A stretch of DNA of 16,212 nt from Candidatus Altiarchaeales archaeon (GTDB lineage Archaea > Altiarchaeota > Altiarchaeia > IMC4 > QMZM01): positions 1-16,212 of the forward strand of contig QMZG01000009.1 of the NCBI GenBank assembly GCA_003663045.1, read 5' to 3'. Shown piece by piece: positions 1-16,212 of the stretch (position 1 is its first letter; the number at the start of each line of letters is the position of its first letter). The notes beneath the pieces are model-generated. The model saw nothing but the letters and a program-made list of their open reading frames with translations, did not search any database and was not told the DNA's origin. Made by a program: the position numbers and the translations under genes.

Positions 1-33
1 CAACATATATAGGTATGTTAGATTTTTTACGCT

Positions 34-53
34 AGAAATCCTAAAGGATTTCT
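34..53. terminator. Perfect 8-bp inverted repeat AGAAATCC-TAAA-GGATTTCT preceded by a T6 run (23-28). It may be an intrinsic-like terminator for a gene upstream of the window, or an operator.
   Basis: Seen directly: 34-41 AGAAATCC, loop 42-45 TAAA, 46-53 GGATTTCT is the exact reverse complement. The oligo-T at 23-28 is typical of archaeal termination signals. The position upstream of the virB3/4 promoter would suit either role. Confidence 0.25.
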
Positions 54-237
54 ACATAGCTATAATTATATTATGATAAAGAAGATAGATCTGAAAAAGT
101 TTGACAAGTTATCCACAGAGAAACAATACGAGAATTAGTTGGATAGAGAGTAGGTTATTTGAAAATATCTGTGATTATTACCTTTATTCTTATTTTAACT
201 GAATCTGATCTTCTGAAATATATCCCACAAAAAACAA

Positions 238-258
238 ATATTTATAGGAGTTTATATA
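238..258 (+). promoter_or_regulatory. TATA-like boxes (AAATATTTATA / TTTATATA), about 24-31 nt upstream of ATG 282. Candidate archaeal promoter giving a leaderless or short-leader virB3/4 mRNA.
   Basis: TTTATATA at 251-258 is centred about 27 nt upstream of ATG 282, which is the archaeal TATA-to-TSS spacing. GGGAGA at 274-279 could alternatively act as an SD. Confidence 0.3.
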
Positions 259-281
259 ATGTTGTAATTAACAAGGGAGAA

Positions 282-1160
282 ATGCCATATAAAATTCCCA
301 CTGACATAAGATATGAGGAAAGGTTATTTGGACCATTAACCGTGAAGCAATCCATATACGCCTTAGTAGCAGCTATTTTAATTCTCTATCTTATATTTTT
401 CTCCGGTTTAGAGTTTTATGTATACATCATACCTGTCTTTTTAGTAGCTATTCTGGCTATAGGCTTTATAATGTTCAATCTGGATATGTATCTCTTAAAT
501 TATCTCTACTATATTAAGGGGATGAAAGAGTCATCATGGATTTCACCCGCTGCAAGGAAGTTGATGGAGATTAGATCAATTAGAGCGGATGCGGTATTTT
601 TGAAGGACGGTCGCGTTCTTGGTGTGATAAAGGTAAAGCCCATTAACTTTGGGGTCCTGAGTAGAGAAGACCAAGATACGGTGATATATGGATTCTTAGA
701 ATTTATAAATTCATTGAGTTTTCCTATACAGATTGTGATGAAGTCTGTTAACCTTGATTTAAGTGATTATCTAGGAGCATTGAAGAGAAGGATTGTGCAA
801 AGAGATGATAAGATGGCTCTTGCCTATTATGAACATTTTTCAGAGTATATGTATGATTATATAAAGGCCAATAAAATTAATGACAGATTATTCTACATAA
901 TAGTTCCCGCCAAAAGGTTTGCAGATGAAAAGAAGACGATCATGAATCTGGAGGATAGATGTAAGGCGGTTATTGAAACCCTGGGTCTTTCGGGAATTAT
1001 TGCAGAAAGACTGGGTAATAGGCAACTTCTTAGCCTTTATTCATCCTATTTCACAGAGTCATTTAAATTAGATGAGGAATTTGTTTCGCCTATTACCATG
1101 TATAAAAGGATGTGGCATGAAGCACCTAAAAAGGTTTATTATGTAGAAGAGGAACTATAA
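282..1160 (+). CDS. VirB3-like membrane hairpin fused to the VirB4 N-terminal domain, i.e. the N-terminal part of a split T4SS VirB3-VirB4 ATPase. The ORF track starts it at TTG 159. ATG 282 is the more likely start.
   Basis: With ATG 282 the N-terminus reads MPYKIPTDIRYEERLFGPLTVKQSIYALVAAILILYLIFFSG...IPVFLVAILAIGFIMF. A short cytoplasmic segment, the 'LFxGLT' motif and two TM helices form the classic VirB3/TrbD/PrgI layout. The following stretch AVFLKDGRVLGVIKVKPINFGVLSREDQDTVIYGFLEFINSLSFPIQIVMKS matches the conserved start of the VirB4/TrbE N-terminal domain ('dGsl..v.r..g.d...s.ee.e.....l..ll..l'). ATG 282 has GGGAG 5 nt upstream and a TATA box at -27. The longer TTG start adds a hydrophobic 41 aa of uncertain reality. 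Confidence 0.7.
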   Translation: MPYKIPTDIRYEERLFGPLTVKQSIYALVAAILILYLIFFSGLEFYVYIIPVFLVAILAIGFIMFNLDMYLLNYLYYIKGMKESSWISPAARKLMEIRSIRADAVFLKDGRVLGVIKVKPINFGVLSREDQDTVIYGFLEFINSLSFPIQIVMKSVNLDLSDYLGALKRRIVQRDDKMALAYYEHFSEYMYDYIKANKINDRLFYIIVPAKRFADEKKTIMNLEDRCKAVIETLGLSGIIAERLGNRQLLSLYSSYFTESFKLDEEFVSPITMYKRMWHEAPKKVYYVEEEL

Positions 1161-1165
1161 TCAAA

Positions 1166-3481
1166 ATGGAATTTCCAGATATAAAGCTTCCCTCTGGTTT
1201 GTCTCTACCAATGTTTAAGAAAAAGAAAAAGACAACGGTAGAAGAGGGAGGGGTGTATGAATATGAGGACAAACTCATAGGGTATTTGACATCCCCTTCA
1301 ACCATAATAAAGCATATAGATGACATTCAGATAGAGAAATTTCACAGGATAATAGCTGCCATAAATTATCCTCGCTTGGTAGAACCGGGATGGTTAACTA
1401 GGTTAATTGAGATGAATCTGGATTTTGATTTAAGTATTCATATCTCACCCTATTCCATTGAATCTACTGTGAAATTATTGGAGACTGAGATAAAGAAGCA
1501 AAAAACTGACCTTTATGGACTAAAGGCTGAGGGTAAAATTGTACCTCAGGAATTGATACAGAAGCATGAGGATACCAAGGCTTTATTGGAAGCAATTCAA
1601 AATGGTACAGAGAAGATGTTTACAATGAGCCTTTATATTGATGCTAAGGCTTATGATAAAAAGACCCTGGAAAAGGTGACGACTATGATAAAAGCAAAGA
1701 TGAGTTCTATTATGATCACCCCAAAGGTTCCTTCCTTTCAGATGTATAAAGCACTTAAGTCTGTATTGCCCATACAGGATGACCAACTCCATATAACCAG
1801 AGAGATTACATCATCCGCCGTATCTGCATGCTTTCCCTTTGCTATCACCTCTTTAGAACACCACGCTACAGGAATTCTGATAGGATTTAATCAGATAAAT
1901 AATATACCCATTATAATTGATCCATTTGAATTAAGCAATCCCAATATACTAGTTCTGGGGACATCCGGCGGGGGTAAGAGTTATACTATAAAATTACTAT
2001 TGATGAGGGAATTCATGGAGGGCGTGGATATAAATATTATTGACCCGCAGGCCGAGTATACCGACTTGGTTAAGACATTTAAAGGAAAGACCATTAGAAT
2101 TGCCCCAGATTCTGACTCCATAATAAACCCATTTGATCTTATGGGTCAACCCCTGGATGAAAAGAAGCTTTCGCTTTTAGCATTCTTTAGGGTTCTTCTT
2201 GGGGAACTAAATGAGGGACAAAGGGCTATCCTCGATGATGCCATTGACAGTACCTATGAGGATGCTGGAATTACCAAGGATCCCAAGACCTGGTCAAAGA
2301 GGCCCCCAATATTAGAAGACCTTTATGATCATATTCTACCCCTGACCAGATCCGAAAAGGAGATCATCTATAGGCCTGCTATGTCTATTGTGAATAGACT
2401 AAAGGCCTATATATTTGGACCACTAAAATTTTTGAACCAGCAGACTAAGATAGAGCTTGACAACAGGATGATTTCCTTTGATATTAGGGATATACCAGAC
2501 ATTGGTAAAGGAACTATTATGTTCCTGATCTTGGAATATGTCTATACCCAGATGAAAAGAAGCAGGAAGAGAAAGGTCCTGGTTGTTGATGAGGCGTGGA
2601 GTGTTTTTTCTGCGGGCGATGAAGGTGAGTACATACTAAGACTAGTAAAGACCTGTAGAAAATTCAACCTATCATTGGTTATGATAACTCAAGACGTGGA
2701 GGACGTTCTCACCTCAAGGGCTGGCAGGGCAGTAATGAGTAACACCGCCACTAAGATATTACTAAAGCAGGATACTACGGTAGTTGATGCTATCAGTGAG
2801 AAATTTAAACTTAATGAGGCTGAAACTAGGTTCTTGAGGATTGCCAGCGTGGGTACAGCATTATTGATTGCAGAAAATCTTCGGGTGCCAATTCATGTTC
2901 AGGCATCCCCAGAGGAGCACAGGATTATAACCACCAGACCAGATGAACTCTTAGAAATGATAAGGAGAGAGGGAAGACCAGAGGTGGATAGAGAAATGAA
3001 ACCTGAGTTGGATATTACTGACGTGGTTCAGAATAAGATTAAATTAACCAATGAACAGATAGAGGCTTTAATGGATATAGGATTTACTGAAGTTAGGGTT
3101 AATTCACTGGATGGTAAGAGTGAACTCTACATCATAAAGAATGAGACAGAGGATACTGATGAACATTTTGTCTTACAGCATCTTATCTTCAAGGAGGTTA
3201 AAAAATATACGGACAAGGTACTGATACACTACACAAAGTTGCCAGACATAACATTTGAAACTCCCGATGGGAGATTAATTGCTATAGAGGTAATCGCCGA
3301 CTTGGGTTTAAAAGCAAACATAGAATCTATGGAAGAAAAACTACCTATATTAAAGAAATATAATGATTATTTCTATGTAGTCAAAGATCCTGAGCTGAGG
3401 AAATATGAAAGCTTTGGTGAGATCCTAGTTAGAACACAGGTTCCAACCAAGATCAGATCATACTTTGAAGCTGGCAGTTAA
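1166..3481 (+). CDS. virB4: VirB4/TrbE/CagE/TraC-family type IV secretion/conjugation ATPase (C-terminal ATPase part of a split VirB4). It carries an extra roughly 170-aa C-terminal extension made of a predicted wHTH plus a restriction-endonuclease-like (PD-(D/E)xK-type) fold.
   Basis: Walker A ILVLGTSGGGKSYT (nt 1958-1981 = GTSGGGKS). Walker B KVLVVDEAWSVF (DEAW at nt 2588-2599), the VirB4/TraC hallmark. Sensor motif LVMITQDVEDV ('ITQ'). The start is 5 nt after the stop of the VirB3/VirB4-N ORF. C-terminal aa about 620-771: LTNEQIEALMDIGFTEV (HTH-like), then EHFVLQHLIFKEVKKYTDKVLIHYTKLPDITFETPDGRLIAIEVIAD. The pattern E...D...E-V resembles the core of a PD-(D/E)xK / Hjc-like nuclease fold. 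That last point is an inference. Confidence 0.88.
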   Translation: MEFPDIKLPSGLSLPMFKKKKKTTVEEGGVYEYEDKLIGYLTSPSTIIKHIDDIQIEKFHRIIAAINYPRLVEPGWLTRLIEMNLDFDLSIHISPYSIESTVKLLETEIKKQKTDLYGLKAEGKIVPQELIQKHEDTKALLEAIQNGTEKMFTMSLYIDAKAYDKKTLEKVTTMIKAKMSSIMITPKVPSFQMYKALKSVLPIQDDQLHITREITSSAVSACFPFAITSLEHHATGILIGFNQINNIPIIIDPFELSNPNILVLGTSGGGKSYTIKLLLMREFMEGVDINIIDPQAEYTDLVKTFKGKTIRIAPDSDSIINPFDLMGQPLDEKKLSLLAFFRVLLGELNEGQRAILDDAIDSTYEDAGITKDPKTWSKRPPILEDLYDHILPLTRSEKEIIYRPAMSIVNRLKAYIFGPLKFLNQQTKIELDNRMISFDIRDIPDIGKGTIMFLILEYVYTQMKRSRKRKVLVVDEAWSVFSAGDEGEYILRLVKTCRKFNLSLVMITQDVEDVLTSRAGRAVMSNTATKILLKQDTTVVDAISEKFKLNEAETRFLRIASVGTALLIAENLRVPIHVQASPEEHRIITTRPDELLEMIRREGRPEVDREMKPELDITDVVQNKIKLTNEQIEALMDIGFTEVRVNSLDGKSELYIIKNETEDTDEHFVLQHLIFKEVKKYTDKVLIHYTKLPDITFETPDGRLIAIEVIADLGLKANIESMEEKLPILKKYNDYFYVVKDPELRKYESFGEILVRTQVPTKIRSYFEAGS

Positions 3482-3496
3482 TTAACAGTTAATTAA
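3475..3496. repeat. Tandem direct repeat of 11 bp, CAGTTAATTAA x2, each containing the palindrome TTAATTAA. It overlaps the virB4 stop codon and lies 26-47 nt upstream of the SPFH ATG, so it is a probable promoter/operator element.
   Basis: Seen directly: 3475-3485 cagttaattaa and 3486-3496 cagttaattaa. TTAATTAA is TATA-like, and the second copy is centred about 28 nt upstream of ATG 3522. Confidence 0.4.
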
Positions 3497-3521
3497 GCTA
3501 ATTTATTAAATTTAATTTAAT

Positions 3522-4682
3522 ATGGCGTTGATACCATTGGGTGAGAAAGAGGCTGAAGGGGAGGTCTATGTCCCAGAGGAGAAAAAAACAGGGATAGATA
3601 TCATAGAAAAATTCATAGAAAAATGGAGGGATGGGATATTTACCATCCTCGTTATCGCTTTTATAACAGCAATTTTTATTCCAGATATATTCCTGGGGGA
3701 TATTGGGATTAATCTTAAGTTGATAATTTTTGTTATAATAATTTTTTTAATCATTAGGATATCAGTTGTAAGATTACTTGAGTATGAAAGAGCAGTTGTA
3801 TTCCGACTGGGTAAATTTCACAGGGTAGCTGGTCCGGGTTGGGAATTGATTTTTCCAATAGTGGAGAAGTTTGTGAGGACGGATCTGAGATTAAAGGTTT
3901 ATACCATAGAACCGCAGGAGATAGTCACAAAGGATAAGGTAAGATTCTTGGTCTCTCCGGAGATATTCATGTACGTTTCTAATCCAAAGGATGCGGTGAT
4001 AAATGTGGACAATTACGAGAAGGCAGTTCTTTCTTATGTAAATTCAGCCCTGACCCATGTGGGCGGTGATTCAACCTCCGATTACATAGTAGCGCATATG
4101 GATGATATAAGCGAGATGCTGGAGCACAGTGTTGAAAAAATATCCACATTACCGGGAAGGGAGTGGGGGGTAATTGTACCAAAAATTAAGTTGGGGTTCA
4201 TCAGATTTCCAGATGAGGTTCAGTCCGCTATGCATAAAAGGGTCGCAGCCGGGCAACTAAAGTTGGCGGCACATGAAAAGGCAGATGCTACTAAGATTGA
4301 AATAGACGCCATAAGAGAGGCTGGCTCAAAACTTACTGATCCAGCAATTACCTATCTGTACCTAGAAGCATTGGATAAGATAGCTAAAGGAAAAGCTACG
4401 AAGATGATATTGCCTCTAGAAATATCCAAGATTGCAGAGAGCATAACCAAGAGAACTGGTGCTTTACCAGAAACACCTGAGGTCAGTTTACCCAAAGATT
4501 TAATTCGGAAATATAAGGAGTCTGTGGATAGGTATGATAAAAAACTGAAGGAGATAGAGGATAAACTGGCTAAAAGGGAGATAAAAGAAAGGAAAGAAAA
4601 GTCAGAGAAAAAAGAAACTGGGGAAGAACTTAATGAATACAAGGAGAGGATTAGAGAGATAAAAAAGAGGATCGGTATATAA
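3522..4682 (+). CDS. SPFH / Band-7 (stomatin/prohibitin-like) membrane protein with an N-terminal TM anchor and a C-terminal K/E-rich coiled coil.
   Basis: N-terminal TM segments FTILVIAFITAIFIPDIF / LKLIIFVIIIFLIIRI are followed by the canonical stomatin signature VVRLLEYERAVVFRLGKFHRVAGPGWELIFPIVEKFVRTDLRLKVYTIEPQEIVTKDKV. The pattern 'V.EYERaVvfRlGk....PG...i.P..d.v..vdlr......p.q.v.TKD.v' is classic SPFH. The tail EIEDKLAKREIKERKEKSEKKETGEELNEYKERIREIKKRI is a coiled coil. Confidence 0.85.
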   Translation: MALIPLGEKEAEGEVYVPEEKKTGIDIIEKFIEKWRDGIFTILVIAFITAIFIPDIFLGDIGINLKLIIFVIIIFLIIRISVVRLLEYERAVVFRLGKFHRVAGPGWELIFPIVEKFVRTDLRLKVYTIEPQEIVTKDKVRFLVSPEIFMYVSNPKDAVINVDNYEKAVLSYVNSALTHVGGDSTSDYIVAHMDDISEMLEHSVEKISTLPGREWGVIVPKIKLGFIRFPDEVQSAMHKRVAAGQLKLAAHEKADATKIEIDAIREAGSKLTDPAITYLYLEALDKIAKGKATKMILPLEISKIAESITKRTGALPETPEVSLPKDLIRKYKESVDRYDKKLKEIEDKLAKREIKERKEKSEKKETGEELNEYKERIREIKKRIGI

Positions 4683-4853
4683 GGCAATGGCACTTTGACA
4701 TTAACTTTGTTAAAGGCGCGTTTGCGTCCCTTATGAGGACTAATGACACCTTGATTTACGCTTTGTTAGTAACACCGATGCTTAAATTCTCTTCATATTG
4801 AGGATATTAGTATTGATTAATTTGAATGAAATCTAAAGATTATAAAATCCAAA

Positions 4854-5126
4854 ATGGATGATAAAATCGATACACAGAATATCTACATCGATCCAGAGAA
4901 AAAATTTGTTACTATAAGAGTAAATCCAAGGATTTATAAGATTCATACTATTATGAACGCTGCGGATGAATTCATAGAGACGGCAGAATTGGTAATAGAC
5001 GGAGATCCAGAAAAGGAGATCATCGTCAAGATGATCCCAAAGAAGAAGGATCTGACCGAGGAAGAATTGCTAGAATATGCCTACAAATTTAACACTTATT
5101 TGATATCCCATAGTGCTACGAGATAG
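4854..5126 (+). CDS. Small hypothetical protein (90 aa), acidic, no TM. It sits in a 170-nt / 100-nt intergenic context, implying its own promoter.
   Basis: ORF MDDKIDTQNIYIDPEKKFVTIRVNPRIYKIHTIMNAADEFIETAELVIDGDPEKEIIVKMIPKKKDLTEEELLEYAYKFNTYLISHSATR. TATA-like TATAAAA at 4841-4847 and TTGATTAATTT at 4813-4823 lie upstream. No recognisable motif. Coding status rests on ORF length and codon usage similar to its neighbours. Confidence 0.5.
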   Translation: MDDKIDTQNIYIDPEKKFVTIRVNPRIYKIHTIMNAADEFIETAELVIDGDPEKEIIVKMIPKKKDLTEEELLEYAYKFNTYLISHSATR

Positions 5127-5194
5127 AACCTGGATTAATTCAACTGATTCTTATTAAAATTCTCAATCAGCAATAAAGCATTTAAATAGCTTCT

Positions 5195-5208
5195 CAAAAT
5201 ATATATCA
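5195..5208 (+). promoter_or_regulatory. TATA-like box AAATATATAT centred about 26 nt upstream of ATG 5227. Candidate leaderless promoter for the Mrr-PAP2 gene.
   Basis: Seen directly: 5197-5206 aaatatatat, ATG at 5227. The spacing is typical for archaeal leaderless transcripts. An additional TTTAAATA sits at 5181-5188. Confidence 0.35.
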
Positions 5209-5226
5209 AACATAACATGACATAAT

Positions 5227-6990
5227 ATGGACGACTTTGAAAGATTTTGGATGGAAAGGGAAAGAGAAGAACTGGAGATAGAACCGGAGAAACTTAGAAA
5301 GGTTCTATCGAAGATACTTAAAGAGTTTAATCTGGAGTTAAAATCAATTGAAGAAACCGAAGAGAAAGACCTGGTAGCTACATGCTTAGATAAATTGGGG
5401 AGGGAGGTAACATCCTTAATAAGAATTCGTGCCGATACCGAAGGGATCGAAAGGGATGATGTAGAGGACTTTTATGAGGATATGGTAGAGAAAAGGGCTG
5501 TAGCTGCTATCTTTATCACTACCTCTTATTTTTTTAAGGATGCCAAGGATTTTGTAGAAGGGCTTCCCATAAGGCTGGTTGATAGAACACAGTTATCAGA
5601 AATTATAGCTGAGATCGAGGCCATAAAGGTTGAGAAGGCATTTGTTTCTGGGATGAATGACTCACAGGTGGTGAAATATTTCCAAAAAAAGACAAAGGGG
5701 AGGGTATTAGGTAGATTTGGAATGCCTGAGAATATCGAAGAGATAGATCGCAGGTATCTACCCATGGGGTTTTTCAGTCTCAAGAAAATCGAAGAAAACG
5801 TTGAAAGGAGAAAATTTGCATACATAGATCTCAGCAGTGGCGATCTCTTCTATATAGATGAAGGACGTATAAAGAAGGATGATATCATAAAGAATATTCT
5901 TAATCTTCCTCCAGAATCCAGGGAACACCTCATGGATTTGATTGAGCATGGAGAACTGCCTCATGAACATATAGATGGGAAGTATTTGCTCATACTGAAA
6001 AAAAGAGGGTTATTAGGAGAGTATGAAGAGGGTAGAGGGGGTGGAATCCTCAGTACTATGGTAAATGGAATCATGAGTTTAGTGATGATAATAATCGATA
6101 CAGCAGGGGAATTTATTGGCATTCCAAGATCAGAACATGTTCCAAAGGGGGGTACTGCTCAACCAAAGAGAGTTAAAGCGAGAGTCAATATCCCCATCTT
6201 TGATCAAGCCTATAATCTGGAGAATTTTATGGAGGTTTCAAATGCCAGTGAGGAATTTGATCCGGATCCCATGAAGTATAAACCAGAGGAGGTAGAGGAT
6301 ATTCTGAGGAAAATCACCGGGTATGAGGTAAAATTCGAGAATATGGTTTATTTTCCCTATTACCTGTGCAAATATTCTGGTCCAAGGGGGGAGAGGTACA
6401 GAAGGTTATATTCAGTGAAATTTAAAGAATTTTTTCCGAGGCCGGGAACATATAATGTATTGTATCATATTATAGACAAGTTTCCAGAATTGCCTTATCT
6501 CATACTGGCTGCTCTTTATATCCATTTTAATATCAGTGAAACGGAAAAATTAATGCATGTATTCTCTTCTTCCTTTCTTTTCCTGATTATATGCGTTTTC
6601 ACAGGGACGTTGTTAAAGGCTATCTTCAAGACGGAAAGAGTAACACCCTACTACGGTGTATCAGTTTTTAGATACGGATTTCCATCCATGCACAGTTTAG
6701 CCTCCATCGGTGCTATAGGGTTTGTATATTTTATAGAACCCATGGGGCCTTTACTTTCACTAGTACTGGTACCAATAGGTCTGCTCTATGTCTATTCCAG
6801 AATCAAGATAGGCGCTCACAGCGTGACCGATGTTATTGGGGGGGCAATCATTGGCCTTATCATGGGGATAATCTCTGGTATGCATCTACTGAAGATTCAT
6901 CTTCCATATCCTTTGGAGTTGATATCCACCACACTTTTTGTTATCATGCTATTTATCTTTATTATAATTAGAATTAAGTATATACACTAA
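5227..6990 (+). CDS. Fusion protein with an N-terminal Mrr-type restriction-endonuclease-fold domain (Mrr_cat-like), a central linker/wHTH-like region, and a C-terminal polytopic PAP2-superfamily (type 2 phosphatidic-acid phosphatase / haloperoxidase fold) membrane domain.
   Basis: N-terminus: LSKILKEFNLELKSIEETEEKDLVATCLDKLGREVTSLIRIRADTEGIERDDVEDFYEDMVEKRAVAAIFITTSYFFKDAKDFVEGLPIRLVDRTQLSEII. This follows the Mrr_cat pattern (D..D core, 'QcKr'-like LIRIR, 'gi.vTTs.Ft.eA..fa....i.LidgeeL'). Note R replaces the usual catalytic K. The C-terminal TM bundle carries the three PAP2 motifs: KAIFKTERVTP (KX6R-like, aa 464-474), FPSMHS (PSGH-type, nt about 6682-6693), and YSRIKIGAHSVTD (SRX5HX3D, nt 6796-6831). 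Confidence 0.8.
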   Translation: MDDFERFWMEREREELEIEPEKLRKVLSKILKEFNLELKSIEETEEKDLVATCLDKLGREVTSLIRIRADTEGIERDDVEDFYEDMVEKRAVAAIFITTSYFFKDAKDFVEGLPIRLVDRTQLSEIIAEIEAIKVEKAFVSGMNDSQVVKYFQKKTKGRVLGRFGMPENIEEIDRRYLPMGFFSLKKIEENVERRKFAYIDLSSGDLFYIDEGRIKKDDIIKNILNLPPESREHLMDLIEHGELPHEHIDGKYLLILKKRGLLGEYEEGRGGGILSTMVNGIMSLVMIIIDTAGEFIGIPRSEHVPKGGTAQPKRVKARVNIPIFDQAYNLENFMEVSNASEEFDPDPMKYKPEEVEDILRKITGYEVKFENMVYFPYYLCKYSGPRGERYRRLYSVKFKEFFPRPGTYNVLYHIIDKFPELPYLILAALYIHFNISETEKLMHVFSSSFLFLIICVFTGTLLKAIFKTERVTPYYGVSVFRYGFPSMHSLASIGAIGFVYFIEPMGPLLSLVLVPIGLLYVYSRIKIGAHSVTDVIGGAIIGLIMGIISGMHLLKIHLPYPLELISTTLFVIMLFIFIIIRIKYIH

Positions 6991-10110: not shown

Positions 10111-11064
10111 TTAAGGCAAAAACCCCCTGAATAATCTTACAAATATGAAGGGGGTAAGCATTAACATCAACAAACCGGCCAATTCCATGATGAATTTTAA
10201 TCCAGTAGGAACGATAAAGCTCGTTATTAAATCTGTGAGATTCATTCCTATCGCTATTATAACGAGCACGAATGCCATCGCAGCCTGAGCTAATGTCCAG
10301 AGAAGTGTTTGTTCCAGTAGCAATCTTCCCATTCCCCGGGAGGGTAAAAAGGAATAGAGAAGGATTGTAAATGGCAATATCATGGAGAGGATAGCTACCA
10401 TGTAGAACCTCAATTTTAGGATAAGGAATATCCCCTCCAAAAGAGCATAAGGGATAAAGAGGAGGGGAATTCCGGCCCTCTCCACGCCCAGTGACCAGCC
10501 ACTGGCACTGTGCGACATTATATGCCTGCCCATGTTGAGTATATATTCCGTTGCATGTATAAAAGGATCATTCTTGTTTACCGGAGCCAATGATAGAATA
10601 TTTAGGGTAATTGCCTCCGAGATACCAAAGAATATCATCAGAATATAGGGCGAAACGGATATGATTGCAATGCCGATAATCAACAGTAATAGGGAGGATT
10701 TTGCACTGGCTCTCTTTTCTGGTGAGCCAGAAAAGAATATCAGGTAGATTCCAATGAGGATTATTACTGTAACATATATTGCCTGTAAAATGGAGATGAA
10801 GTAATCCATAATCTTCTTGGTATTTGATTCCAGTATTGAGGGATTCTCCAGTATCAGATCATCTATATTCCTAAGTGTTTCTATCTTTTCCATTATCAAC
10901 CTTTCGTAATTTTCAGATACCTTTTCTCTAAGGAATGCCTCCGCTGCCTCTTCGGTCAGTGGATAGATGATCCCCGATACCGAATTTGACAAAAACAGCA
11001 ATATTACAATAACTATCAATAATGAAATTCCTCTGATTTTTGGGTTGATTGAATCTTTTTTCAT
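10111..11064 (-). CDS. Polytopic membrane protein, paralog 3 of 5 (VirB6/TrbL-like candidate).
   Basis: Signal or TM LLIVIVILLFLSNSVSG. Motifs ILQAIYVTVIILIGIYLIFFSGSPEKRASAKSSLLLL and ILPFTILLYSFLPSRGMGRLLLEQTLLWT. C-terminal ...FVRLFRGFLP. The start ATG (11062-11064) overlaps the TGA of the upstream paralog (ATGA-type coupling). GGAGA lies 8 nt upstream. Confidence 0.82.
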   Translation of the reverse strand: MKKDSINPKIRGISLLIVIVILLFLSNSVSGIIYPLTEEAAEAFLREKVSENYERLIMEKIETLRNIDDLILENPSILESNTKKIMDYFISILQAIYVTVIILIGIYLIFFSGSPEKRASAKSSLLLLIIGIAIISVSPYILMIFFGISEAITLNILSLAPVNKNDPFIHATEYILNMGRHIMSHSASGWSLGVERAGIPLLFIPYALLEGIFLILKLRFYMVAILSMILPFTILLYSFLPSRGMGRLLLEQTLLWTLAQAAMAFVLVIIAIGMNLTDLITSFIVPTGLKFIMELAGLLMLMLTPFIFVRLFRGFLP

Positions 11065-11990
11065 GGTAAAAATCTCCTAACCATTGTTATTAGCATTATG
11101 GGTGATATGATTACCACCAGAAATGTTGATATACCTATTATAGTTCTTAGATCCCCGCTAAAGCCTAAAATAGTGATTCCCATATTTGCAGTCACTATAA
11201 GCAAGGCAATTATTACCTGGAGGAATGTCCACAATATGGTCTGTTCCACTATAAACCTGCCAATGTCCCTCGTTATGTTAAATGTATACAGGAAGATGCC
11301 TATGGGGAATATCAATGTGAAGATCAAAAGAAGGAGATATCTCAGAGTAAGAACAGAAAAGATACCTATTATCATGAAGAATATGAATAAAAGGAAGAGG
11401 TGACCCCCTTCGAATGTGGTTAATGTGGATGCAGTAAAGATTCTCACAAGATCATTTATTGTGTCCAGGAATATCCTCCCTATCCCCACTGGACTCTTAT
11501 CCAGTATATCCTTAGACAATTCATAGGAAACATTTGAAATCAGTTGCAGTATGGGGAAGGTGAGGGAAACAATTACCATACTGGCAATCAACTTGGGAAA
11601 GAGTAATTTCGCTTTTCTTCTACCCTTTGGCGATCCGGAAAGAAACATTAGGTAGATTCCAGTAATTAATATTGCCATAACATATAATGGTTCTAAGACG
11701 GTGATGAAGTATTCTATTATATGATTTATCAGATGATCATCAAGTGGGGGATTCATCAGGATTAAATCACGCAGACTATCAAAGATTTCCAATAATCCAT
11801 GACCTACCGGTTTTCCAATAAACGTCCCATGGAGCAGGTAATAGATAAGCAGGATGAATATCCCCCTGAATTTTAATTCGATTGCTTCATGCTTCACGGC
11901 CATTTCCCCAAACCATTCTGAGGTTATTGAGGGGATTAATATGATGCAGATGCATACCCCCATTATCAATTTTTTATTTATTTTTCTCAT
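11061..11990 (-). CDS. Polytopic membrane protein, paralog 2 of 5 (VirB6/TrbL-like candidate).
   Basis: Signal or TM LIMGVCICIILIPSITSE. Motifs VLEPLYVMAILITGIYLMFLSGSPKGRRKAKLLFPKL and FPIGIFLYTFNITRDIGRFIVEQTILWT. C-terminal ...MVRRFLP. 4-nt overlaps at both ends (11061-11064, 11987-11990). Confidence 0.82.
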   Translation of the reverse strand: MRKINKKLIMGVCICIILIPSITSEWFGEMAVKHEAIELKFRGIFILLIYYLLHGTFIGKPVGHGLLEIFDSLRDLILMNPPLDDHLINHIIEYFITVLEPLYVMAILITGIYLMFLSGSPKGRRKAKLLFPKLIASMVIVSLTFPILQLISNVSYELSKDILDKSPVGIGRIFLDTINDLVRIFTASTLTTFEGGHLFLLFIFFMIIGIFSVLTLRYLLLLIFTLIFPIGIFLYTFNITRDIGRFIVEQTILWTFLQVIIALLIVTANMGITILGFSGDLRTIIGISTFLVVIISPIMLITMVRRFLP

Positions 11991-12919
11991 GGTAAGAAAT
12001 CCCTCAAAAAGCTTACGGTAGCTATAGGGACCACTATCAGGGCTATAATTCCTCCCAATTCCAACAAAATCAATACCTCACGCGTCAACAAGGAGGAAAA
12101 CACCACGATTATGGTAGCTATTGAGGTTAATGCTATTGCCTCCGTTACCTGTACAGAAATCCAGAGCAGTGTTTGTTCCATCATCCTTCTGCCTATCCCT
12201 CTGGTAGGCATGAAGAGATAGAGGAATATCGTCAATGGGAATACTATGGTAAATAGAGCAACGACGATATACCTTGAAAATATAACAAACAGGAGTGCAG
12301 AAATAATTATCAGAGAAAGAAACAGAAATGGTACCGATGCCTCTGAAGAATACCATGTGATATTATGAAATTTTGACATAAGATAATCTATTGGATTTAT
12401 GTCTTTATCTAAGGGTAGTAGAATGCCTACAGGATCACCCGGTCCCTGAGATATTATACCATCCGATAGGGTTTCAGAAAAACTGAAAATCACACTCATT
12501 ATATACGGTGAGATAGCAATTAATACCATTGCTATAATAATTCCCGGTAATAAAGATTTTATCTTTGCCCTGATTCCGGGCGAACCAGAAAAAAATATCA
12601 TATATATCCCACTGAAGATTATGGCAAAGACAAACAATGGCTCCATGATGGTCACAATATATCTGGTAATACCCAAGACATCTGGATTCATTGGGTTCGG
12701 ATTCAGTAGCAATATCTCCACAAAATGATCCCTGCATATATCCATGGCATATACTACAAGATCCTCACCAATCTTGTTAAGATTCATTCTCAGAAGAAAA
12801 TCTAATAGTACCTTAACTGCTGCCGCTTCCCCAATGAAAGCTGACGATGATGATGCGAGGAATAAAACTACTATAACCGGGAATGTTAATTTAAACAAGA
12901 TCTTCCTTATTGACTTCAT
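11987..12919 (-). CDS. Polytopic membrane protein, paralog 1 of 5 (VirB6/TrbL-like candidate).
   Basis: Signal peptide LTFPVIVVLFLASSSSAFIGEAAA. Motifs IMEPLFVFAIIFSGIYMIFFSGSPGIRAKIKSLLPGI (nt about 12553-12594) and VFPLTIFLYLFMPTRGIGRRMMEQTLLWI. C-terminal ...SFLRDFLP. Start ATG is at 12917-12919, 12 nt after the upstream gene. Confidence 0.82.
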   Translation of the reverse strand: MKSIRKILFKLTFPVIVVLFLASSSSAFIGEAAAVKVLLDFLLRMNLNKIGEDLVVYAMDICRDHFVEILLLNPNPMNPDVLGITRYIVTIMEPLFVFAIIFSGIYMIFFSGSPGIRAKIKSLLPGIIIAMVLIAISPYIMSVIFSFSETLSDGIISQGPGDPVGILLPLDKDINPIDYLMSKFHNITWYSSEASVPFLFLSLIIISALLFVIFSRYIVVALFTIVFPLTIFLYLFMPTRGIGRRMMEQTLLWISVQVTEAIALTSIATIIVVFSSLLTREVLILLELGGIIALIVVPIATVSFLRDFLP

Positions 12920-12931
12920 TTTTCTAAAGGG

Positions 12932-14038
12932 TTATTTTCTGATGAATTTGAAATATCCCGCTACCAAGATTATCACAGAGATTAAGAGTATCAGGTAATT
13001 GAGCCATTCCACTTTCATGCAATCTGGATCTTCTCCACTCTTACAGTCTGGATCACATTTTCCATCCTCTACCTTATCACAGTAACCATCCTCTCCTCCA
13101 GAAGCACAGTCTTGAGGACAATTGAGATAATTTTCAATACCCATCTCACAGATGTTGTCGTTATTGCAGATACAATCTATATCCCCCTCCCTATGACAGT
13201 CGGGGTCACATATCCCATCTCTTATTCCATCACAATAATTGTCCCTGGAGCCAGAACAGTCCTCTGGACAATTCCAGTAGTTTTCACCATGGTCACAGAC
13301 ACCATTTTTATTGCAGGTTTCTATTACGATAACCTCTATCGTATCTTTTACGGAGATATTCTCAAAATCGATAACCTCAAGGGTAATCTTATGAATTCCA
13401 GCAGAGAGATTATCAATCCTCGTTATATCTTTATCTAATTCCTTCCCATCCAATTTCCAGATAAGGGTATATGGCTTTTTACCACCATAGACAGAGGGAA
13501 TCAGGTTGATGAAATCCCCCCTTAGGTATGTAGTATTCTTTGGCGATAGGATAGATACTGTTAAAGGAATTTTCTTTATTACTACCAGAGAGATATCCTC
13601 CCTTACCTCCAAACCGGTACTATCCCGGACCTTGAGGGTAATCTCATGCGTGTTCACAGACAGGTTCTTTATAGTGAATTCTCTATCTCTTCCTATAACC
13701 CCGTCTATATTCGATACCCATTCAAATCTGTAGGGTGGTGTGCCACCAAATACAAACGCCTCAAAGTTTATAGGACCTTCTTCATAGATGTGTGGATAAC
13801 CAAATGGAGATATAATAGATGCCGTGAGTTTTTGGGTTATACCCTCGTCCCCTACTAATTCATCCAATGGATCTGGAGTAATTTTAATATTTTCATGACT
13901 TGTATTATCTGGATCTAATTCGGGATATGCGGGATGAGAGTGGTAGGAATGGCATCTCTCACAGACTCCCCCAGCGTAATAAATTAATGCAAGCAGCATT
14001 ACTACTATTTCTATTCCGGTTGTCATAATCCTCCTCAT
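12932..14038 (-). CDS. Secreted/surface protein. It has an N-terminal signal-anchor, two PKD/Ig-like domains ('GGxPPYxFxW' type), a duplicated Cys/Asp-rich module pair (candidate Ca-binding, TSP3/EGF-like), and a C-terminal TM anchor.
   Basis: N-terminus TGIEIVVMLLALIYYAGG. PKD-like signatures FVFGGTPPYRFEWVSNIDG and YGGKKPYTLIWKLDGKEL. Sequons include NLS, NTT and NIS. The Cys-rich array at aa 242-340 (nt 13019-13315) is built as [CNKNGVCDHGENYWNCPEDCSG + DNYCDGIRDGICDPDCHREGDIDC] then [CNNDNICEMGIENYLNCPQDCASG + DGYCDKVEDGKCDPDCKSGEDPDC]. C-terminal TM WLNYLILLISVIILVAGYF followed by KFIRK. Confidence 0.8.
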   Translation of the reverse strand: MRRIMTTGIEIVVMLLALIYYAGGVCERCHSYHSHPAYPELDPDNTSHENIKITPDPLDELVGDEGITQKLTASIISPFGYPHIYEEGPINFEAFVFGGTPPYRFEWVSNIDGVIGRDREFTIKNLSVNTHEITLKVRDSTGLEVREDISLVVIKKIPLTVSILSPKNTTYLRGDFINLIPSVYGGKKPYTLIWKLDGKELDKDITRIDNLSAGIHKITLEVIDFENISVKDTIEVIVIETCNKNGVCDHGENYWNCPEDCSGSRDNYCDGIRDGICDPDCHREGDIDCICNNDNICEMGIENYLNCPQDCASGGEDGYCDKVEDGKCDPDCKSGEDPDCMKVEWLNYLILLISVIILVAGYFKFIRK

Positions 14039-16212
14039 TTTCTACCCATGAATTCATCCCACATTTCATAGATATCTAATCTACCTTCCCTGAACCATCT
14101 ATATGAAAAGGCTAAGAGGATCAGTATCATGAAGAGTAGGAGAACCTCCGGGGAAAGGAACCACCAGAATCTGCTTAGAGAGTAGACATTTACGTAAGTG
14201 GTATCTTCACTTGGCGTATACCTGCTATGATACAAACATCTAACCCTTGTGCTCTGGTCTGTGGTTGTGAATTTAAACTCGGCTTTTCCATCCATATCTG
14301 TTGTCACCTTTGCAGAGATGCCATACGCTTCCAATTCTATGGTTACCTCTTCATATGGAATTCCCTTACCGGTAAGAACATCCAAGAGCGTAACATGGAT
14401 GATAACCTCATCTCCAGGATTTACAGATTCTGGTATTGCTTCACATATCACTCTGGATGCATTCCTCATCGTAACATTTATATAGATGTTGGCATAGGGT
14501 CTTGTTTCGGTACGTGGCGGAAACAATGGAAAGGTCTGAGTAGAAAGATTATCCCTGAAGTGGATAAATATGGTGATATTTGCATTTTCAAGGTCAAAAT
14601 ATGGAGTGCCACAGCAGCATTGTTGTGAATCCCAATCAGCACTACAAGATAGATTACAATCCTCTATACATGACTCATTATCTGCTTTAATACAGTGCAC
14701 ACATCTTTTGAGTGACGTGTTTAGAGGACAATTACATTCAGAAATAGAAATCTGGTTTCTTGCTTTACAAAACTCCTGGCAGTTATCTCCGAGAGAGGAG
14801 TTATACCAGCTTAGGTTCCTGTACTTGATCAAAGGATAGGGAAAATTCATGGCTTCAAAATCAAGGATATATCTGCCACTCACCTCTTCAACAACCTCAT
14901 GCTTGAGGGTTTTATTATGGCAGATCTTCCATATGTTATGACCCGACATATCGCTGTAGGTGTATGGCCCATCTCCGACCTCAGCGGTGCATAGACGAGA
15001 ACCGGTAGTGCTATTCAATTTTGTCGCATCGTCTGAATCGCGATTTACAGCCCACACATTTCCATCGAAGTCTACGGTCACACCTATGGGACCTGTTCCA
15101 ACACCATATCTGCCCAGAACCTCACAGTTAGAACCATTTACCTTAATTACCTCATCGGATGTATAGTCTGCAACCCACGCGTTATTATCCCAATCCACAA
15201 CTATGCCCCTGGTATAACCGGCAATCCTATTTTTACATATAACGGCCCCGGTTGTTCCGTTCACCTTGTATACATTACCTGATCTCGCACCACCCAACCA
15301 GATGTCTCCATTGCTGTCTATACCTATGCCGTACGCATCGCCACCTATGCGATAACCTCCAGGGGGCGATACAACAACGCCATCTGATGTTCTTATCTTG
15401 AAGAGCCTGTCATCCTTATCATAACCATTACATATTATCCATACATAACCATGACAGTCATAGACTCCACCGTAGGGATATAATCCAACTGGAATTGGAG
15501 ATGAGTCTATGGGACATGTTGGATTTCTTGCTGGATCACCTATAATACATTCACCCGTAGTTCCATTCAATTTCCATACATTATTATCCAGAGCATTGCC
15601 CACCCAGATATTGTTGTCATCATCTGCCGCTATTGGCCTGGGACCGCGTCCAACGGGATAGGTATCTATAACCTTGCATGTATTGCCATCCAATCTGGTT
15701 ACATCGTTTGAGTTTCTGTTAGCTACCCACACCTCACCCTTGAGGTCTACCGCTGTTCTTGATGGATTTGATCCAACATCATATGTACATACCTCCTTAC
15801 AATCATGTGTTCTTACCTTGCTTACCGTGTTGTCTTTAGAATTGGCAATGAAGATGTAGGTTGTATTAAATGTTTTCTTACTTATATCGTGAGTGACCTC
15901 CCCCCTAAGGTCTCCAGTAAAAACCGGATTCGTTCCAAGTTGATCCATGAGTTTTATATTAGAAACCTCCTCTGTCTCGAGATCAACAAAGTCAAAGTAG
16001 TAGCCTTCTTCCTCGTGGAATGTCCTATCGGAGGTACATGGAAATTTGTAGCTGTGTCCCTTTGGAGGAAGACAAACGCAGTCCGTTCTCTTGTATTTAT
16101 TGCCATTTTCATCTATACAGGTGACATCTGTTATATCATCCTCAGGACATGTACAATCTGCGGGACATATCTTCTTACACTGCTCTGGATAGTTAAAGTA
16201 AGAACTTTCATA
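14035..16212 (-). CDS. Large surface protein (partial, with its 5' end beyond the window edge). It has an N-terminal Cys-rich region, a YVTN/NHL-type beta-propeller repeat domain, a second Cys-rich region, and a C-terminal TM anchor. It is heavily sequon-decorated and so probably N-glycosylated.
   Basis: The frame is open from the track's Met (15948) up to nt 16212 (...CKKICPADCTCPEDDITDVTCIDENGNKYKRTDCVCLPPKGHSYKFPCTSDRTFHEEEGYYFDFVDLETEEVSNIKL-MDQLG...). The true start is therefore upstream of the window. Repeats such as YDVGSNPSRTAVDLKGEVWVANRNSNDVTRLDGNTCKVIDTYPVGRGPRPIAADDDNNIWVGNALDNNVWKLNGTTGECI match the roughly 40-residue YVTN/NHL beta-propeller blade pattern ('G.P.giavd..gn.WVan...n.V.k.d'). 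It contains more than 15 N-x-S/T sequons. C-terminal TM FWWFLSPEVLLLFMILILLAFSYRWF. Its stop overlaps the start of the downstream gene (14035-14038). Confidence 0.8.
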   Translation of the reverse strand, partial: YESSYFNYPEQCKKICPADCTCPEDDITDVTCIDENGNKYKRTDCVCLPPKGHSYKFPCTSDRTFHEEEGYYFDFVDLETEEVSNIKLMDQLGTNPVFTGDLRGEVTHDISKKTFNTTYIFIANSKDNTVSKVRTHDCKEVCTYDVGSNPSRTAVDLKGEVWVANRNSNDVTRLDGNTCKVIDTYPVGRGPRPIAADDDNNIWVGNALDNNVWKLNGTTGECIIGDPARNPTCPIDSSPIPVGLYPYGGVYDCHGYVWIICNGYDKDDRLFKIRTSDGVVVSPPGGYRIGGDAYGIGIDSNGDIWLGGARSGNVYKVNGTTGAVICKNRIAGYTRGIVVDWDNNAWVADYTSDEVIKVNGSNCEVLGRYGVGTGPIGVTVDFDGNVWAVNRDSDDATKLNSTTGSRLCTAEVGDGPYTYSDMSGHNIWKICHNKTLKHEVVEEVSGRYILDFEAMNFPYPLIKYRNLSWYNSSLGDNCQEFCKARNQISISECNCPLNTSLKRCVHCIKADNESCIEDCNLSCSADWDSQQCCCGTPYFDLENANITIFIHFRDNLSTQTFPLFPPRTETRPYANIYINVTMRNASRVICEAIPESVNPGDEVIIHVTLLDVLTGKGIPYEEVTIELEAYGISAKVTTDMDGKAEFKFTTTDQSTRVRCLYHSRYTPSEDTTYVNVYSLSRFWWFLSPEVLLLFMILILLAFSYRWFREGRLDIYEMWDEFMGRK

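Follow-up and report, generated by a model that had tools for sequence, protein, structure and literature searches.

A chromosomal gene cluster of Altiarchaeota derived from type IV secretion systems, with a predicted nuclease domain fused to its VirB4 ATPase

The contig QMZG01000009.1 of a Candidatus Altiarchaeales archaeon (assembly GCA_003663045.1), analysed here over its full 16,212 nucleotides (nt) and called the window below, encodes, with little room for doubt, the core of an apparatus derived from a type IV secretion system (T4SS). In Altiarchaeota, a DPANN-affiliated phylum, this system is chromosomal and vertically inherited, and its VirB4 ATPase ends in a domain for which modelling predicts a PD-(D/E)xK nuclease-like fold. 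The best reading, which we regard as probable, is that of a chromosomally fixed, vertically inherited, T4SS-derived nucleic-acid transfer machine rather than part of a plasmid or of an integrative and conjugative element (ICE); for nucleic acid as the substrate, taken by itself, the arguments are evenly balanced. Tentatively, the cluster may represent a third, independent archaeal lineage of T4SS-derived nucleic-acid machines, in which a VirB4-fused nuclease replaces the relaxase and the coupling protein, and which is phylum-wide and chromosomal in Altiarchaeota and mobile in many other DPANN. An initial annotation of the window had proposed a mating-pair-formation (MPF) gene set and, should the host be a euryarchaeon or a DPANN archaeon, a new lineage of Ced/Ted-type systems. 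The VirB4, VirB3, VirB6 and VirB2 components support the former, and the host does lie outside Crenarchaeota.

At least 569 VirB4 relatives were found in a scan of one genome per species, and about 40 of the best 80 loci are of Altiarchaeota type. Open reading frames (ORFs) were called in all loci and then searched with profiles from the window proteins; loci and proteins are numbered with the prefixes L and P. The window consists of two convergent gene blocks, the left one on the plus strand and the right one on the minus strand. The genes of the apparatus itself are:

282 to 1160, plus strand: VirB3/PrgI-like anchor fused to a TrsD/TraC-like domain, with matches to PrgI, TrsD and the N-terminal part of VirB4_plasma
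1166 to 3481, plus strand: VirB4-family T4SS ATPase of 771 amino acids (aa), MPF-FATA-like, with matches to P-loop_TraG and conju_CD1110
2936 to 3478, plus strand: C-terminal domain of VirB4 (residues 591–771), predicted to comprise a small N-terminal subdomain and then a PD-(D/E)xK nuclease-like core
6987 to 8987, minus strand: VirB6-like paralog 1, 666 aa, an "extended VirB6", from the paralog alignment and a weak TrbL_3 match
8977 to 10110, minus strand: VirB6-like paralog 2, 377 aa, from the paralog alignment and a T4SS_pilin match (0.0056)
10111 to 11064, minus strand: VirB6-like paralog 3, 317 aa, modelled with AlphaFold, with a match to T4SS_pilin (PF18895, 1.7e-6) and a TrwI/VirB6-like fold
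11061 to 11990, minus strand: VirB6-like paralog 4, 309 aa, from the paralog alignment
11987 to 12919, minus strand: VirB6-like paralog 5, 310 aa, from the paralog alignment

The VirB3-VirB4 pair, already recognised in the initial annotation, was confirmed. The VirB3-like ORF is open from a TTG at position 159, with the ATG at 282 as the likely start, and matches PrgI (PF12666) at 32.7 bits (1.1e-7), above the cut-off of 27. The protein also matches positions 22–278 of the NCBIfam model VirB4_plasma, for the VirB4 of Mycoplasma ICEs (1.3e-13), a further match is to TrsD (1.5e-5), and 292-aa gene calls of the same protein carry the TraC-like PF26593; by these matches the gene corresponds to the N-terminal portion of long VirB4 proteins, split off as a gene of its own. 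It adjoins VirB4 in 88 of 97 loci. Many DPANN relatives have one VirB4 ORF of 960–1100 aa in place of the two genes, with PF26593 on P0116–P0120, and here the VirB3-like protein appears to be fused to VirB4.

The VirB4 protein itself matches P-loop_TraG (4e-25), AAA_10 and DUF87 in Pfam as well as conju_CD1110 (3e-91; 307 bits, cut-off 325) and VirB4_plasma (1.5e-72; 245 bits) in NCBIfam, while the TraC-F and VirB4/CagE models score about 140 bits each, and the VirB4 structure 4ag5 of the Protein Data Bank (PDB) is matched at 4e-38. The Walker A (GKS) and Walker B (DE) motifs are invariant across 74 relatives. The scores for CedB (57 bits, 1e-15, cut-off 700) and CedD (62 bits, cut-off 600) are far lower than that for CD1110. 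The best plasmid-borne homologs, from Firmicutes and Actinobacteria, share 27–33% identity, those of haloarchaeal plasmids about 24%, and none of the plasmid matches spans 80% of the query. Since CD1110 is preferred over CedB and CedD to this extent and plasmid homologs are only distant, the sequence places VirB4 among FATA-related ATPases, outside any characterised plasmid clade at useful identity and outside the Ced family. The suggestion of a Ced/Ted-type apparatus stands in so far as the system is host-encoded and not plasmid-style; as a statement of sequence relationship to Ced it fails. In some Altiarchaeota, the virB4 gene contains an intein, inserted in the P-loop ATPase region, that bears a homing endonuclease of the LAGLIDADG type (P0154, 1426 aa; P0107; P0112).

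Residues from about 591 to 771 of VirB4 have no significant family in Pfam. The AlphaFold model of this domain (predicted local distance difference test score, pLDDT, 89.9) led to PD-(D/E)xK nucleases in each of two fold searches, the Foldseek matches being NucS/EndoMS, YaeQ, Hjc, VRR-NUC and Can2/Card1, and it has the alpha-beta-beta-beta-alpha-beta core expected of this fold, in which acidic residues and a lysine are conserved. Residue conservation was assessed in 74 VirB4 proteins (36 from Altiarchaeota and 38 from other DPANN), which are only 38–43% identical overall. D694 and E708 are invariant in all 74, K725 is found in 73, H667 in 71 and P693 in 60; since the acidic residues and the lysine are kept across such divergent lineages, the pattern is that of a catalytic site. 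In an exhaustive search of 1.84 billion representative sequences, only 177 proteins with this domain were retrieved at E ≤ 1e-3, mostly VirB4 fusions plus short proteins or fragments, and the domain was covered in none of 2682 matches to plasmid VirB4s. The fusion is thus diagnostic of the family. As a predicted nuclease, the domain is the strongest clue to nucleic acid as the substrate and to transfer without a relaxase or coupling protein, since the modelled fold suggests a possible route to DNA processing in which neither is used.

The five minus-strand paralogs between 6987 and 12919 are 31–35% identical to each other and have the motif Y..F.SGSP..R...K in common, which confirms the fivefold VirB6-like array proposed initially. 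In each, a pilin-like hairpin at the N-terminus precedes a polytopic core, a layout that has been reported for CedA relative to CedA1 and for VirB6 relative to VirB2 (PMC9905601). The 317-aa paralog was modelled from 29 homologs (pLDDT 85.2), and TrwI/VirB6 of the R388 T4SS accounts for the top four PDB matches of the model (E 7e-3 to 1.6e-2, probability 1.0, TM score 0.37–0.50), with a drop to E 0.15 and a TM score of 0.19 at the fifth. A profile of the paralogs compared with PDB sequences gave only insignificant matches to CorA, and the designation VirB6-like accordingly refers to likeness at the level of the predicted fold. The profile retrieved 227 proteins across 81 loci; paralog 5 is present as an identical protein on 23 contigs. 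In the 666-aa paralog, for which the weak TrbL_3 match comes from precomputed annotation, an extra hydrophilic C-terminal region of about 330 aa contains two internal repeats and matches nothing significantly in Pfam. A second Altiarchaeota species (L035:1164-6456) also has exactly five VirB6-like paralogs. An anciently fixed set of five was considered and found no support, as the proteins of this locus and of the window are 27–38% identical without one-to-one orthology; the arrays either expanded independently or diverge very fast. Any link of the number five to the pentameric VirB6 of R388 is pure speculation.

The initial annotation had listed VirD4/TcpA, a relaxase, a cell-wall hydrolase, an integrase and a VirB2-type pilin as missing. 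For the first four this holds, as Pfam and NCBIfam searches found none of them among the window proteins. The apparent absence of a pilin was misleading: the 317-aa paralog matches T4SS_pilin above the cut-off (the 377-aa paralog does so at 0.0056), and a gene for a 138-aa VirB2-type pilin (L007:8348-8764; T4SS_pilin 1.4e-12, TrbC 1e-6) lies directly to the left. In the sibling contigs that extend far enough (L002 and L006-L009) the gene stops shortly before the window begins, and its 3' end is also present in L001.

Positions 155–16212 are about 99% identical to the siblings L006-L016, so that their flanks could be read as continuations of the window. On the left, going outward, these contain the 138-aa pilin gene, a PMT_2 glycosyltransferase of the GT-C type, three small genes and a giant ORF (L007:1-4271) which on a 46-kb contig is a gene of 6758 aa. 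The last 1422 residues of its product comprise HEAT/ARM repeats and an S-adenosylmethionine-dependent methyltransferase domain and neither an ATPase nor an adhesin domain, and the idea of a SPEARE-like protein with a VirB4/TraG ATPase was dropped. On the right, the remainder of a surface protein truncated by the window end is followed by a fusion of a pilin domain with PKD and a papain-type protease, a DUF333 protein and a 704-aa protein. Within 10–20 kb on each side in these near-identical contigs there is no integrase, no tRNA gene such as could serve as an att site, no VirD4/TcpA-type ATPase and no relaxase family; of the parts listed as missing, the flanks did supply the pilin.

The left edge varies between strains. 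Window positions 1–154 have no match in L002 or L006-L009, the match to L001 begins at window position 61 (with the 3' end of the pilin gene 64 nt further upstream in that contig), and among strains otherwise 99% identical the spacer between pilin and VirB3 genes has at least two unrelated versions (window 1–154, L001:1-124, L002:1-515 and L007:8765-8990 were compared); most assemblies break there. Positions 1–60 match no contig and include a hairpin with a 9-bp stem at 33–54, while L001:1-43 (ERZ27227320 k141_135720) is Nextera transposase adapter sequence, an assembly artefact. A second variable site lies between the genes of the 377-aa and 317-aa paralogs (window about 10093–10135), where some siblings have an extra 60–190 nt (L008:18970-19034 and L012:12818-12999). 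Part of this stretch in L012 is a scaffold gap filled with Ns, after which comes a duplicated 'CCTTAATTGAAAATG' junction; the extra sequence reflects strain variation or else a fault in assembly.

Several species have a glycosylation cluster upstream of the pilin gene (L043:1841-8246, L010:2967-7106, L007:6479-8119), in which a GT2 Dpm-like enzyme is accompanied by two or three enzymes of the GT-C/PMT_2-like kind and by a PAP2-like phosphatase; the pilin, or the surface proteins that go with it, may thus carry glycans. Pilin-like N-terminal domains also occur fused to PKD and a papain-family protease, to VWA, or to PKD alone (L012:1360-3207 on the minus strand, P0145-P0147, L010:18620-19948), suggesting enzymes or adhesins that are displayed on a pilus or on the membrane and are tied to the system.

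Proteins identical or 99% identical to the window VirB4 are encoded on hydrothermal-vent metagenome contigs and in the metagenome-assembled genome (MAG) GCA_029933415.1. More than 100 clusters of VirB4 homologs are 63–99% identical to it, those with a named source being almost all from Candidatus Altiarchaeota/Altiarchaeales. About half of the best 80 genome matches are Altiarchaeota-type loci, including SM1-type IMC4, with VirB4 63–90% identical, and the others are full-length matches at 38–43% identity in Woese-, Pace-, Nano- and Iainarchaeota; of the 80, only a 3-kb contig, which had been binned as a Spirochaetia bacterium, is not labelled archaeal. Nearly every locus contains the VirB3/TrsD partner, at least one short pilin and at least one VirB6-like protein. 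In the context of the assembly of hami appendages, we note that the cluster is found in the SM1-type IMC4 genome and in vent lineages alike, and is therefore not restricted to one Altiarchaeota type.

The genomic setting of the module differs between Altiarchaeota and the other DPANN. Altiarchaeota loci are present on contigs of 0.5–1.56 Mb, and two gene orders are conserved in groups of them, eRF1-PheT-glycosylation genes-PMT2-pilin-PrgI-VirB4-(SPFH-90-aa gene-Mrr-PAP2)-RFC in one and giant VirB6-Zn-ribbon-VirB6-x-PrgI-VirB4-pilins-PheS and onwards in another; in several species eRF1/PheT are within 7–9 kb of the module, with RFC or PheS directly adjoining. Module and flanks have the same G+C content in genomes that span 38% to 57%, in line with the comparison that the initial annotation had called for, and from one species pair to the next VirB4 identity rises and falls with that of the neighbouring eRF1, PheT and RFC (96/93/87/88, 85/85/68/68 and 58/70/59). 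A tyrosine-integrase profile built from the DPANN loci detected an integrase at 12–13 of 40 DPANN loci and at none of the 40 Altiarchaeota loci, nor on any sibling contig of the window. Near VirB4 at these approximately 40 Altiarchaeota species loci there is no integrase, coupling protein or relaxase, and the other P-loop proteins are all housekeeping proteins (LonB, Drg, FeoB, FtsY, eIF2-gamma, ABC transporters, RadA, KaiC, RFC), none being a type IV coupling protein (T4CP). Because integrases are missing, the G+C content is that of the flanks, the genes co-diverge with their neighbours and these neighbours are housekeeping genes, the Altiarchaeota module is regarded as chromosomal and vertically inherited, and its domestication there as very probable.

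These data leave only a slim chance that the window belongs to a large ICE or integrated plasmid, that is, to an ordinary, divergent archaeal conjugation system with its integrase, coupling and replication/transfer genes beyond the sequence seen. Such an element would fit with the similarity of VirB4 to conjugative MPF-FATA ATPases, with relatives in Woese-, Pace- and Nanoarchaeota situated 6–8 kb from tRNA-abutting tyrosine integrases, and with the contigs of the window's own lineage, which end at 46 kb without any housekeeping gene; the missing relaxase would be no obstacle, archaeal conjugative plasmids being without a recognisable one anyway (PMC12857230). It is opposed by the absence of integrase and tRNA from all 40 Altiarchaeota loci and from the siblings, by the housekeeping genes that bracket the module in several species (eRF1/PheT, RFC or PheS), by a G+C content ameliorated to each genome and by the co-divergence with housekeeping genes. 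Moreover, megablast against a plasmid collection yielded no DNA match to the window, no T4CP is nearby, and the window itself is free of tRNA genes, Rfam families and tandem repeats.

In the other DPANN, the unit is compact and consists of a pilin, one or two VirB6-like proteins and then the fused VirB3-VirB4. Where an integrase is present it is always 6–8 kb upstream of VirB4, abutting a tRNA gene in four cases, and these cousins look like small integrative elements. Nine such units (L065, L071, L074, L077, L079, L087, L089, L091, L096), which combine a tyrosine integrase and an N6/N4 DNA methyltransferase with a pilin, with two VirB6-like proteins and with a fused VirB3-VirB4-nuclease and have no coupling protein, are candidates for minimal ICEs. 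At the four loci with an integrase beside tRNA-Asp, tRNA-Leu or tRNA-Ser, neither att-like repeats of the tRNA gene nor element ends were found within 22 kb. Some Altiarchaeota-type genomes have two loci (L050 and L057 in isolate LFW-28, L046 and L058 in SCGC AAA252-I15), one with an Altiarchaeota-type VirB4 (64–69% identical to that of the window) and one with a DPANN-type VirB4 (42%); the latter adjoins type I restriction-modification genes.

The remaining features of the window are:

1 to 154, no strand: strain-variable spacer at the left contig edge, with the VirB2-like pilin gene directly upstream, outside the window
3522 to 4682, plus strand: SPFH/Band-7 membrane protein with a coiled-coil tail (Band_7, 5.7e-25)
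4854 to 5126, plus strand: conserved 90-aa cytoplasmic protein with no assigned function and no family match
5227 to 6990, plus strand: membrane protein with an Mrr-like fold, an uncharacterised middle domain and a PAP2 phosphatase (Mrr_cat, PAP2)
12932 to 14038, minus strand: Cys-rich surface protein, 368 aa, with an N-terminal signal or transmembrane (TM) segment and a C-terminal TM anchor
14035 to 16212, minus strand: VWA/beta-propeller surface protein, C-terminal 726 codons of about 1866 aa, truncated by the window end

The genes between VirB4 and the paralog array had initially been taken for accessory cargo. All three are present, and they are not random cargo, being kept beside VirB4 across species loci. 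The Mrr-PAP2 gene stays there in about 13 Altiarchaeota species loci, with the three-domain architecture kept in about 11 and the PAP2 part missing from two more; in L010 and L023 only part of the middle domain is left, directly upstream of PrgI/VirB4. The SPFH gene, a lineage-specific accessory gene downstream of VirB4, adjoins it in about 9–11 species loci, and the 90-aa gene accompanies SPFH and Mrr-PAP2 in about 9–10. PADLOC identified no defence system among the three, only a weak type IV restriction endonuclease match for the Mrr domain. The Mrr-PAP2 protein matches Mrr_cat (8e-12), PAP2 (1.2e-8) and, weakly, NA-iREase1. As the (E/Q)xK motif is not conserved among 11 orthologs, the Mrr-like domain is probably inactive, and a role as an active membrane nuclease was dropped from consideration. 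No significant family was found for the 90-aa protein in Pfam or NCBIfam, nor for the Mrr-PAP2 middle domain and the Cys-rich protein in Pfam.

Two surface proteins are indeed present where adhesin-like proteins had been proposed; the 637-aa ORF at 14035–15948, however, is the end of a truncated gene whose frame is open to 16212, which is why an exact protein look-up finds no record of it. The full gene in L012-L016 codes for about 1866 aa with VWA, an NHL/YncE-type beta-propeller, an Ig-like domain and a C-terminal TM anchor (matches to VWA, Vgb_lyase and beta-propeller families). The Cys-rich protein, whose hydrophobic ends are evident from the sequence itself, has a segment in common with the DUF333 protein of the right flank.

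Combining these components, the following mode of action may be proposed. The VirB2-type pilin, encoded upstream beside the GT-C glycosyltransferase, would enter the membrane and polymerise on a platform of the five VirB6-like polytopic proteins with their pilin-like N-terminal hairpins, assembly being driven by the VirB4 ATPase, which the VirB3/TrsD-like protein would tether to the membrane. At the cytoplasmic mouth of the channel, the nuclease-like domain of VirB4 would most likely cut or process nucleic acid and so take over from the relaxase and coupling protein that are missing. DNA, possibly RNA, would in this way be moved between neighbouring cells, as do Ced/Ted or as might the T4SS of Patescibacteria, with cell contact mediated by the adjacent membrane-anchored adhesins and the pilin-domain fusion proteins.

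The same gene set could instead form a pilus, adhesion or protein-delivery apparatus that transfers no nucleic acid and serves cell attachment, biofilm formation or exchange with symbionts, the C-terminal domain of VirB4 then being regulatory or binding. We consider this unlikely, although it is the most serious of the alternatives. Surface proteins abound at the locus (those with VWA/beta-propeller or PKD, the Cys-rich one, and pilin fusions to a papain-like protease or VWA), the Patescibacteria T4SS with its pilin arrays is essential for epibiotic growth for reasons other than competence (PMC12857230), nanohaloarchaeal VirB4-type ATPases next to giant adhesins have been proposed to deliver effectors (PMC10266531), and the probably inactive Mrr-like domain suggests that nuclease folds at this locus need not be active. 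The invariance of the acidic residues and near-invariance of the lysine of the C-terminal domain nevertheless argues for catalysis, the linkage of the DPANN module to integrases and DNA methyltransferases is typical of DNA-transfer elements, and neither a candidate effector nor a substrate receptor of T4CP type came to light.

A nutritional variant would have DNA or RNA from neighbours imported and degraded by the nuclease domain of VirB4 as a source of nucleotides and not for recombination. It is a sub-case of nucleic-acid transfer rather than a fully separate model, and as a specific proposal it is improbable. The nuclease fusion is universal in the VirB4 family, and DPANN relatives commonly lack nucleotide synthesis; in MAGs of DPANN from vents, "type IV secretory pathways" were noted in almost all and suggested, in a single sentence, as a supply of nucleotides (PMC8091004). 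A cultivated patescibacterium acquires host RNA, and its tubular structures may be T4SS pili (bioRxiv 10.64898/2026.06.21.733656). SM1-type Altiarchaeota, on the other hand, are described as autotrophs and not as obligate symbionts (as reported in PMC8275790), and the present data demonstrate neither direction nor substrate.

Several points weigh against a domesticated nucleic-acid transfer machine. The window's own lineage is represented only by contigs of up to 46 kb, none of them with housekeeping flanks, and its chromosomal status is extrapolated from relatives with VirB4 58–70% identical; a T4CP, relaxase or integrase could sit elsewhere in the genome, the flanks being the part searched. 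With CedB, and probably with TedB, VirB4 has no more than its superfamily in common, the neighbouring Mrr-like domain looks catalytically dead, and the T4SS of Patescibacteria, for all its importance in epibiotic growth, has a substrate that is not established as DNA.

If the proposed reading is correct, this would be the first such system outside Thermoproteota, where the host-encoded archaeal T4SS derivatives characterised so far, Ced and Ted, are found, and a candidate route by which Altiarchaeota obtain genes or nucleotides from neighbours. An entire archaeal phylum would have a comparable system as a fixed part of its chromosome, with integrase-linked mobile cousins across DPANN, and the bacterial counterpart would be the T4SS of Patescibacteria, which is essential and still enigmatic. 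Studies of small-celled, uncultivated archaea, of their gene flow and of the interaction between cells, could target the pilin, the five VirB6 paralogs and residues D694, E708 and K725. The literature on Altiarchaeota or DPANN together with VirB4, T4SS or conjugation, as searched with most subscription journals outside its scope, gave no account of an Altiarchaeota system, of a VirB4-nuclease fusion or of VirB6 arrays; a prior description elsewhere may exist.

Among known systems, the nearest VirB4 matches are found in the MPF-FATA conjugation systems of Firmicutes, Actinobacteria, Tenericutes and haloarchaeal plasmids (PrgI/PrgJ/PrgH, CD1110-family VirB4, TrsE), which also have a PrgI-type VirB3 and a TrsD-like domain. 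They are, however, borne on plasmids or ICEs together with a T4CP, a relaxase and a cell-wall hydrolase, partners that are missing from the window locus, and have no VirB2 pilin. Archaeal conjugative plasmids of the pNOB8 type and pT33-3 of Thermococcus resemble the window locus in VirB4-dependent DNA transfer without a recognisable relaxase; they are self-transmissible, and only VirB4 and VirD4 are recognisable in them (PMC12857230), whereas the Altiarchaeota locus is chromosomal, has VirB2, VirB3 and VirB6 homologues and is without VirD4 in its flanks. Because no conjugative relaxase is known in archaea (PMC12857230), the missing relaxase carries little weight. In the SPEARE proteins of Nanohaloarchaeota, DPANN VirB4/TraG-type ATPases likewise occur beside giant surface proteins, as part of a proposed T4SS in cell-cell interaction, but there the ATPase domain lies within the giant protein and no pilin/VirB6 set has been described (PMC10266531); the giant neighbour of the window locus carries its HEAT repeats and methyltransferase in the last 1422 residues and no ATPase.

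In their logic, the closest archaeal analogues are Ced of Sulfolobales and Ted of Thermoproteales, which are host-encoded, domesticated T4SS derivatives (PMC9905601, PMC11868833) made up of a VirB2-like pilin, a VirB6-like channel with a pilin-resembling N-terminus and a VirB4-like ATPase, with no relaxase or coupling protein. They demonstrate that a minimal VirB2/VirB6/VirB4 set imports DNA in Sulfolobales without a relaxase (PMC9905601, PMC11868833). The phylum is different, the scores against CedB and CedD indicate no specific sequence relationship to Ced, the window locus adds a VirB3/TrsD component, and the Rad50/HerA/ParA genes of the Ted neighbourhood were not seen beside Altiarchaeota loci.

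In composition, the closest analogue is the MPF-FATA-derived T4SS of Patescibacteria (the candidate phyla radiation, CPR), which is chromosomal and lineage-wide in small-celled uncultivated organisms and comprises VirB4, PrgI/VirB3, TrsD, VirB6 and VirB2-like pilins, often arrayed, with no relaxase nearby (Quinonero-Coronel et al. 2025, PMC12102498). There, too, VirB4 is related to monoderm MPF-FATA ATPases. Wang et al. (2023) reportedly also deal with this system. Components resembling VirB1 or VirB8 were not detected at the window locus, nor was a VirD4 homologue within the flanks that were examined. The Altiarchaeota system differs in its archaeal host, in an array of VirB6-like paralogs and not only of pilins, and in the predicted PD-(D/E)xK nuclease-like domain at the C-terminus of VirB4. 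The resemblance between the two is one of build and does not imply common descent.

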